Origin: an uncultured Bacilli bacterium
GTDB lineage: Bacteria; Bacillota_I; Bacilli_A; RF39; UBA660
Length of the DNA stretch: 64,000 nucleotides
Reading direction: 5' to 3'
Assembly: GCA_944331895.1 (NCBI GenBank)
Contig: CALVIX010000006.1
Location: 1,798 to 65,797, forward strand
Below the pieces are notes generated by a model. It had not been told where the DNA came from and searched no databases. It was given only the letters and a program-made list of their open reading frames with translations. Within the stretch, counting starts at the first letter, position 1. Each line of letters opens with the position of its first letter. The position numbers and the translations under genes were made by a program. Of this stretch, positions 60,638 through 61,340 are shown piece by piece.

Positions 60638-60966
60638 CCACCCATCATATTAGAAATATCTAACATTTTACGACACCACGCGTCATAGTTTCTAGCATTA
60701 ATATATTGATTTTTATATGATAATCTTGCAAGCACTTTCATCATCTTCAATTTAACATCCAACTCATTTAAATATTTCAACTTTTCTATGCGATCGTAAG
60801 ATTTATAACAATATAAAATACACTCCATACCATCATAAGTCACTCGCTTTAGTTCAGTAACAAGTGCAAAACGTTCTGACTTAGGATATTTTTTAGTTAT
60901 CATGTTAATATAATACATTAAATCTAAATATTTTTGATATATTTGTAACTCTTCAATTTCTTTCAT
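60610..60966 (-). CDS. Avd-like accessory variability determinant (four-helix-bundle protein family)
   Basis: 118-aa helical basic protein (LQIYQKYLDLMYYI...PKSERFAL...) resembling the four-helix-bundle / 23S-IVS protein family used as the DGR Avd. It overlaps the RT start by 28 nt. Confidence 0.75.
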   Translation of the reverse strand: MKEIEELQIYQKYLDLMYYINMITKKYPKSERFALVTELKRVTYDGMECILYCYKSYDRIEKLKYLNELDVKLKMMKVLARLSYKNQYINARNYDAWCRKMLDISNMMGGWMKSCRKQ

Positions 60967-61340
60967 TTTAACACCTCTTGTAATTCATATAAAATAGTGA
61001 GTGCATCTATCGGCTTAATTTCATCGAAATTTATCTTTTTAATCTCTTTTAATTTTTTTAATACGCTATGATCGACCGTTACTTGAGCATCTTCTTTTTC
61101 GATGATTTTATAGTCAATCCCTATCTCATTTAAAAGCTTCACATATTTTGCCTTACTATTTTGTGGAAAACCGCACTTATTTACTTCATCTGTAAATTTA
61201 GTCTGCTTTAACCCTAATTTTTTACTTAAATATGCAGAATCCTCTGCCAAAAAAATATAAAATATTCCACTATGAAACAAATAATACTTTTCAGGATTTT
61301 CGTTTTTTAGCTCTAAATATTTCTTATACAACTTACTCAT
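60963..61340 (-). CDS. mini MutS-like protein (MutS domain I-like N-terminus plus MutS C-terminal-tail-like helix), DGR accessory candidate
   Basis: LYKKYLELKNENPEKYYLFHSGIFYIFLAEDS...LGL..TK...CGFP....KYVKLL...G parallels MutS domain I ([30 protein letters not shown]...L.I.LT...AGIP....NYLAKL). An ATGA overlap joins it to the avd start. Confidence 0.6.
   Translation of the reverse strand: MSKLYKKYLELKNENPEKYYLFHSGIFYIFLAEDSAYLSKKLGLKQTKFTDEVNKCGFPQNSKAKYVKLLNEIGIDYKIIEKEDAQVTVDHSVLKKLKEIKKINFDEIKPIDALTILYELQEVLK

Follow-up and report, generated by a model that had tools for sequence, protein, structure and literature searches.

A diversity-generating retroelement (DGR) located in a 64,000-nucleotide stretch of DNA from an uncultured Bacilli bacterium (GenBank assembly GCA_944331895.1, contig CALVIX010000006.1, positions 1,798 to 65,797 of the forward strand; hereafter the window) contains a short open reading frame (ORF), msl, which almost certainly belongs to a chromosomal DGR of Candidatus Fimihabitans intestinipullorum as its MutS-like (MSL) accessory gene. 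Locus L001 of this species is 99% identical to the window. MSL is one of the four DGR accessory gene classes described by Wu et al., 2018 (NAR 46:11, PMC5758913), which agrees with the statement in a first, search-free reading of the sequence (the original prediction) that msl ORFs had been noted in DGR surveys. The gene class is therefore already published, and the value added here lies in the details, namely the loss of the mismatch-contact glutamate (Glu), a C-terminal module homologous to that of MutS, natural fusions to the accessory protein Avd, and orphan copies of the gene. The original prediction had also placed a 125-aa ORF between the template repeat (TR) and avd, coupled to avd through an ATGA overlap; its coordinates and exact sequence were confirmed, and the overlap reads 'tcat' on the forward strand (Table 1).

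The TR and the variable repeat (VR) of the window are 86% identical, and 16 of their 16 mismatches fall on TR adenines. This is the signature of a DGR and places msl in a bona fide element, which, judged from its sequence, is predicted to be active. Only the target gene, TR, msl, avd, and the reverse transcriptase (RT) gene lie between the flanking ribosomal protein genes, and no HRDC gene is found among them. The core ribosomal flanks and the absence of visible phage genes around the element point to a chromosomal, non-phage DGR.

MutS domain I in the msl protein

The original prediction had aligned the msl protein by eye with the mismatch-binding domain I of MutS, and both profile and structure comparisons bear this out at significant scores. 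Pfam MutS_I matched residues 4-85 with an E-value of 1.9e-9 (38.2 bits; gathering score 20.6), NCBIfam models of full-length MutS matched the same stretch (TIGR01070: 34.5 bits, cut-off 641.7, profile positions 5-87), and Taq MutS was the top match in a sequence search of the PDB. The AF2 model, built on 32 homologs and having a mean pLDDT of 89.8, places a beta-alpha-beta domain at residues 1-80 and a helix-loop-helix at 91-101 and 110-124, with a disordered linker (84-86) between them. In a Foldseek comparison of this model with the PDB, 50 of the 50 matches listed were domain I of MutS, MutSalpha, or MutSbeta (best E=4e-6), and superposition on domain I of the E. coli and Taq proteins gave a root-mean-square deviation of 1.5-2.0 Å over approximately 82 residues. 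Because Pfam, the PDB sequence search, and Foldseek agree, the similarity is well above chance, and the msl protein is predicted to carry the MutS domain I fold. Canonical domains II-IV and the ABC ATPase domain V are absent from its 125 residues. The protein is basic, with an isoelectric point (pI) of 8.75, or 9.2 for domain I alone.

Loss of the mismatch-contact glutamate

An HMMER alignment to Taq and E. coli MutS set the GIFYI sequence of the msl protein against the GDFYE motif of MutS, in the way that the original prediction had read it. The phenylalanine (Phe) that forms the intercalating wedge is retained, and both the aspartate and the mismatch-contact Glu are replaced by isoleucine, that is, the canonical Phe-x-Glu motif is not intact. 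To place this substitution in the context of the family, relatives were taken from a scan of one genome per species, which yielded 112 relatives, of which 80 loci were fetched and searched with hidden Markov models built iteratively from the MSL, Avd, and RT of the window. All 86 MSL ORFs of the 80 loci carried the Phe, and their Glu position was occupied by I (56), L (19), V (3), M (3), Y (2), or R (3), in no case by E. Nor was E found at this position in 197 further database relatives, which had I (149), L (33), V (11), N (3), or A (1). An invariant Phe and a Glu that is never present are a property of the family across approximately 280 relatives. Other shared features include an invariant N-terminus, MSKLY, and the invariant or near-invariant residues K12, G25, Y28, D34, K45, K55-C-G-F-P59, and Y66.

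Among the PDB matches to the msl protein were G.T-mismatch complexes of MutS E38A/Q/T mutants (1wbb, 1wbd, and 1wb9), which indicates that loss of the Glu does not abolish mismatch binding. E38 mutants of MutS reportedly lose discrimination and repair authorization, not DNA binding.

C-terminal helix-loop-helix

The resemblance of the C-terminus to the C-terminal helix of MutS, also part of the original prediction, holds at the level of the family. When a 38-position profile of MSL C-termini was compared with 177,635 PDB sequences, the top match (E=0.0086) was 2ok2, a maltose-binding protein fusion of the C-terminal domain of E. coli MutS; the profile aligned to its last 25 residues. Five of 10 isolated MSL C-terminal peptides scanned against 18,950 NCBIfam models matched TIGR01070 alone, always at positions 812-840 of 840. 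The 35-aa C-terminal peptide of the window itself gave no NCBIfam match when scanned alone, and it reads KPIDAL as against TPxEAL (LTPxEAL) in relatives with a clearer motif; since this peptide is too weak by itself, the MutS homology of the msl C-terminus rests on the family. A regular-expression scan detected a C-terminal motif of this MutS type in 107 of 192 relatives.

On this family-level evidence, the msl protein is predicted to contain the canonical C-terminal helix-loop-helix domain of MutS, the segment that stabilizes MutS dimers and, as shown for E. coli, mediates tetramerization (2ok2, 3zlj). MSL is in effect MutS minus domains II-V, with the connector, lever, clamp, and ATPase gone, and a protein lacking connector, clamp, and ATPase can neither signal to MutL nor license repair.

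Selection and spread of the family

Compared with a 90%-identical ortholog, dN/dS was 0.11 for msl; the values for avd and the RT gene were 0.06 and 0.08. The Shine-Dalgarno sequence together with the value of 0.11 identifies msl as a real gene under purifying selection, and a chance reading frame is ruled out by these two features and by the conservation of the family. The latter comprises 393 clusters at 50% identity (E<=1e-10), nearly all of 90-240 aa, with relatives mostly of 110-150 aa and a mean pI of 7.46 ± 1.43. Relatives are present on scaffolds of Clostridium sp. CAG:245, CAG:273, and CAG:389, the FR-series accessions of which hint that they were deposited early. Only two were found in 2.9 million viral contigs, and the family is therefore overwhelmingly chromosomal, in gut Clostridia and Bacilli.

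Some members are preceded by additional sequence. In P0061 and the other members of its cluster (202 aa), an in-frame Cro/C1-type helix-turn-helix (HTH) lies 5' of MSL, and the internal MSKL start is kept; these proteins may be true HTH-MSL fusions, or an adjacent regulator gene may have been read through. The N-terminal extensions of P0083, P0086, and P0091 look like gene calls from upstream starts, with the internal MSK(I/L)Y start kept.

Linkage to DGRs, Avd fusions, and orphan copies

MSL genes are enriched beside DGR genes: a DGR RT and/or Avd adjoins msl in 64 of the 80 genomic relatives (61 with both avd and RT, two with RT, and one with avd), and msl stands alone in 16. The commonest layout is msl-avd-RT on a single strand. 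In 38 of 50 same-strand pairs, the avd ORF overlaps that of msl, most often by 4 nt, and TR/VR pairs with adenine-biased mismatches were found in 37 loci. Homologs of the pilin-like target protein of the window occur in approximately 18 other MSL-DGR loci (L007, L016, L036, L037, L039, and L045 among them), and the MSL-type DGR lineage seems to diversify tip proteins of pili or pseudopili in gut Firmicutes.

MSL and Avd are also linked by natural fusions. P0168 measures 237 aa and P0174, of which P0188 is a variant, 227 aa; in each, MutS_I is followed by bAvd. The two fusions belong to two clusters with less than 50% identity between them and are independent. P0168 was found on nine contigs from three sources, and P0174 and P0188 on four contigs each; this recurrence on several contigs and in independent sources rules out frameshift artifacts. 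P0168 (L081, positions 5001-5714) has a DGR RT immediately downstream and lies inside a DGR locus. The fusions constitute Rosetta-stone evidence that MSL works with Avd. Both P0168 and P0174/P0188 are devoid of the C-terminal helix-loop-helix, and its loss in both suggests that this module supplies tethering or oligomerization, which pentameric Avd could replace.

Orphan MSL genes were identified in eight uncultured Clostridia species (L048, L055, L056, L059, L060, L064, L069, and L079; msl at approximately 6001-6430), in which they occupy a conserved position in the order pyrG, a deoD-like gene, greA, a GH18-like gene, MSL, and spoVAC/AD/AE. The orphan proteins keep the Phe, lack the Glu, and keep the C-terminal motif. 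This conserved core-genome synteny rules out assembly truncation as the cause for at least eight of the 16 solitary copies. Nor do they look like decayed DGRs: no RT, Avd, or TR/VR pair lies within 6 kb, and the nearby pilin-like ORFs have no BLAST-detectable homology to the DGR target.

Variation in cassette layout was also observed. Six loci (L021, L022, L027, L034, L040, and L057) have two MSL genes each: a divergent second type directly 5' of avd, whose motif VKVGNFYRVYG has Arg at the Glu position and whose C-terminus differs, and an ordinary MSL gene on the opposite strand, adjoining the RT gene. In L005, L008, L010-L012, L017, L018, L036, L037, L045, L051, and others, the TR and VR lie 3' of the RT gene with the adenine-bearing strand opposite to the RT coding strand, so that the TR and target would be transcribed convergently with msl-avd-RT. 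All cassette parts are on one strand in the window and in L001, L002, L007, L016, L039, and L052. A search for a host MutS by its GPNMxGKS Walker A motif gave no match, either in the window or in any of the 80 loci.

Comparison with known systems

Wu et al., 2018 (PMC5758913) found MSL in 16 of 372 DGRs and avd in approximately three quarters; MSL proteins measured 112-283 aa, had a pI of 7.2 ± 1.7, and were always accompanied by avd and never by HRDC, an arrangement termed 'Architecture D'. Compared by description, the msl gene of the window is the same in size, MutS homology, DGR cassette, and presence of avd without HRDC, and its pI of 8.75 falls within the published range; we found no essential difference. 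Msl is also encoded in three Bacteroides DGRs, Bfr, Bth, and Bun (doi: 10.1101/2024.11.15.621889), and is mentioned in a review. The portions of the MSL literature covered by our search mention neither the family-wide Glu loss nor the MutS C-terminal module, and fusions to Avd and syntenic orphans are likewise absent from them.

With canonical MutS (MutS1, TIGR01070; structures 1e3m, 1ewq, and 2ok2), MSL shares the domain I fold, the beta-hairpin Phe wedge, the conserved DA, G-x-P, and Y positions, and the extreme C-terminal helix-loop-helix. In contrast to MutS, it has neither domains II-V nor the last approximately 25 positions of domain I, and both acidic residues of GDFYE are hydrophobic.

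Detached MutS-I domains have also been described in polyvalent proteins, for which binding to the DNA of the element was proposed (Iyer et al., 2017; PMC5512222). As with MSL, a selfish or accessory element employs a domain I that is separated from the ATPase. However, polyvalent proteins are giant and multidomain, are encoded by conjugative elements or phages, and usually contain ArdC-N (PMC5512222), whereas MSL proteins stand alone at 110-150 aa, carry the MutS C-terminal module, and are linked to Avd and RT; the msl product of the window is a stand-alone protein of 125 aa from a chromosomal DGR. One giant polyvalent-type protein, the metagenomic P0126 (2323 aa), was recovered by the MSL profile (E=2e-31). 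It combines DUF285/BspA-like repeats with an ArdC-N match below threshold; its MutS-I-like stretches number up to six (four by Pfam), and one of them retains F-Y-E and another has F-Y-H.

Cassette architecture and genomic setting

The features of the cassette are listed in Table 1. The DGR is flanked by rpsR (S18, 63752-63970) and by the S10 operon, with rpsJ ending at 59303. A predicted sigma-70 promoter with a 12/12 consensus match (TTGACA, 17-nt spacer, TATAAT) lies at 63589-63617 on the minus strand, approximately 30 nt 5' of the target start, and may drive the entire cassette.

Table 1. Positions in the window of the DGR cassette components and of the parts of the msl ORF.
Feature	Position	Strand	Basis
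Target gene, 548 aa; N-terminal type IV pilin-like methylation motif, weak FGE-sulfatase/C-type-lectin-like C-terminus with VR	61912..63558	-	Pfam N_methyl E=1.6e-7, FGE-sulfatase E=0.014
VR, 3' end of target gene	61915..62030	-	Repeat search and TR/VR mismatch pattern
TR	61548..61663	-	Repeat family D1; mismatch pattern against VR
AGGGGG Shine-Dalgarno sequence, 4 nt 5' of msl ATG	61345..61350	-	Sequence reading
msl ORF, 125 aa, MutS-like DGR accessory protein	60963..61340	-	ORF listing, Pfam MutS_I, AF2, Foldseek, dN/dS
Minimal MutS domain I, residues 1-82, five strands and three helices; Pfam profile positions 3-88/113	61095..61340	-	Pfam, HMMER, AF2, Foldseek
G25-I-F27-Y-I29, counterpart of MutS GDFYE	61254..61268	-	HMMER alignment to Taq and E. 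coli MutS
Helix-loop-helix, residues 91-124, homologous to extreme C-terminus of MutS	60969..61070	-	AF2 helices, family C-terminal profile, TIGR01070 scan
ATGA, overlap of msl stop codon and avd start codon, translational coupling	60963..60966	-	'tcat' on plus strand
avd, 118 aa, bAvd-like	60610..60966	-	Pfam PF22296 E=2.3e-19
DGR RT, 350 aa; 28-nt overlap with avd	59585..60637	-	Pfam RVT_1 E=3.8e-16, ORF coordinates

Two further structures were noted in the non-coding parts of the minus strand. A perfect 13-bp inverted repeat (TTACATTCGCCCT / AGGGCGAATGTAA) at 61802-61837, approximately 75 nt 3' of the target stop codon and VR, has a fold z-score of -3.2 and is not followed by a U-run; it resembles the hairpin/cruciform element found 3' of the VR in other DGRs, or may be a terminator. 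Between the TR and msl, a low-GC hairpin at approximately 61361-61389 is followed by a U6 run at 61355-61360 that abuts the msl Shine-Dalgarno sequence. This hairpin could delimit a separate TR transcript, in which case the expression of msl-avd-RT would depend on read-through. It was not flagged by a scan for consensus terminators because it has too few G-C pairs. A 90-aa ORF (61479-61751, minus strand) that crosses the TR mirrors the target C-terminus (73.7% amino acid identity in orthologous loci) and is most likely no gene.

Possible function of MSL

The data show the fold, the state of the motif, the homology of the C-terminus, the linkage of msl to avd and the RT gene, and the purifying selection on it; from these we infer that MSL binds DNA or mismatches, associates with Avd, and antagonizes mismatch repair. 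The reading that we favor, tentatively and as one that could well be wrong, is that MSL is a repair-incompetent binder of mismatches or heteroduplexes, tethered to Avd-RT, which hides the cDNA:VR heteroduplex from host MutS. The protein would be made together with Avd by translational coupling and would act in or beside the Avd-RT complex, probably bound to Avd. Its domain I, with a Phe wedge and no discriminating or authorizing Glu, would bind the densely mismatched cDNA:VR heteroduplex of mutagenic retrohoming, and the oligomerization needed for avid binding would come from the C-terminal module or, in the fusions, from the Avd pentamer. MSL seated on the mismatches would then block host MutS from all-or-none restoration of the parental VR until replication fixes the new alleles.

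That an accessory protein might shield or mark the heteroduplex had already been suggested in the original prediction, and the idea appears better motivated now by the Avd fusions and by the published restriction of retrohoming by host MutS. The absence of the Glu is also in keeping with it. In Bacteroides, deletion of host mutS raised retrohoming of an Msl-less DGR 5-10 fold and left the mutation pattern unchanged, which implies all-or-none reversal of the heteroduplex (doi: 10.1101/2024.11.15.621889). In DGRs engineered in E. coli, a dominant-negative MutL was added, and this 2026 preprint cites MutS-like homologs as the reason for suppressing mismatch repair (doi: 10.64898/2026.07.21.739853). 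Such engineered suppression, used in recombineering and in DGR and retron editing (dominant-negative MutL E32K or mutS deletion), resembles MSL only under the favored hypothesis: it shields mismatched single-stranded DNA- or cDNA-derived heteroduplexes from MutS-initiated reversal, as MSL would, but is artificial and global, whereas the shield formed by MSL would be natural, encoded by the element, and probably local. A more specific form of the proposal, which we consider possible and hold with still greater reserve, is that MSL is a natural anti-mismatch-repair factor encoded by the retroelement, a repair-dead mini-MutS that rides on Avd-RT and either masks the cDNA:VR heteroduplex locally or caps host MutS via its C-terminal module.

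Several observations weigh against the proposed shielding of the heteroduplex. Domain I of the msl protein is truncated, covering positions 3-88 of the 113 in the profile, and our literature search found no functional test of any MSL. In MSL-less Bordetella-type DGRs, MutS is reportedly not required, and it had no effect in one kanamycin-reporter assay. The host is placed by NCBI in the Mycoplasmatota. Many Mycoplasmatota lack MutS and MutL. In Bacteroides, the three Msl-encoding DGRs have low activity and two Msl-less ones are constitutively active (doi: 10.1101/2024.11.15.621889), a comparison of five elements that is confounded by transcription level. Finally, no DGR component (RT, Avd, or TR/VR pair) lies within 6 kb of the orphans; MSL may work there in trans or have a DGR-independent role, which fits poorly with a strictly DGR-bound function.

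Other explanations were considered. MSL might be an assembly factor of retrohoming, independent of repair, that binds irregular nucleic acids produced by the RT, for example the mismatched TR-RNA:cDNA hybrid or the cDNA:target displacement loop, and aids mismatch extension, cDNA hand-off, or annealing to the VR. Its tight coupling, and even fusion, to the RT cofactor Avd and its basic character (pI 8.75; domain I 9.2) are in line with such a role; however, the presence of MSL in 16 of 372 DGRs, compared with avd in approximately three quarters (PMC5758913), means that no core step needs it, which makes this explanation unlikely on balance. We regard as rather improbable a docking of MSL to host MutS, in which its helix-loop-helix would hetero-oligomerize with the MutS C-terminal domain and act either as a dominant-negative poison or by recruiting MutS/MutL to direct repair so that the cDNA strand is copied into the VR. 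The homology of the C-terminal motif to the MutS dimerization/tetramerization domain and its occurrence in 107 of 192 relatives would be explained in this way, yet both MSL-Avd fusions lack the helix-loop-helix while residing in intact DGR cassettes. The module is thus dispensable when MSL is covalently joined to Avd, and the fusions fit a generic oligomerization or tethering role better; moreover, retrohoming in the studied MSL-less systems does not need MutS.

There is little to recommend MSL as a brake or regulator that limits retrohoming by sitting on the heteroduplex or the ribonucleoprotein and keeps diversification low until it is needed. The minimal activity of the three Msl-encoding Bacteroides DGRs, set beside the constitutive activity of the two Msl-less ones, is what such a brake would produce, but the source paper ascribes the difference to lower transcription of avd, TR, and rt (doi: 10.1101/2024.11.15.621889), and five elements were sampled. 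In addition, coupling to avd means that MSL is made only alongside the machinery, which would be odd for a brake. That msl is a functionless, decaying remnant of a captured mutS might be supposed from its heavy truncation and from the absence of a key catalytic-site residue; the dN/dS of 0.11, the 393 clusters, the invariant residues, and the conserved place beside avd effectively refute this.

Significance

Of the steps of mutagenic retrohoming, the one least understood is the fixation of DGR cDNA within the target gene; according to recent work, host MutS reverses most events, all or none. Among the DGR accessory proteins, only MSL has an ancestry that points straight to this step. Should the shielding of the heteroduplex prove wrong, msl remains an ordinary member of a published class. 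If MSL is indeed an anti-mismatch-repair factor, hypermutation would be protected at one locus without the cell being turned into a mutator, and the orphans in eight Clostridia species would represent a module domesticated for a DGR-independent or trans role. A protein that shields the heteroduplex in this manner would offer a small, naturally occurring means of evading mismatch repair at a chosen locus, useful to DGR- or retron-based continuous evolution, which now relies on global knock-downs of mismatch repair.

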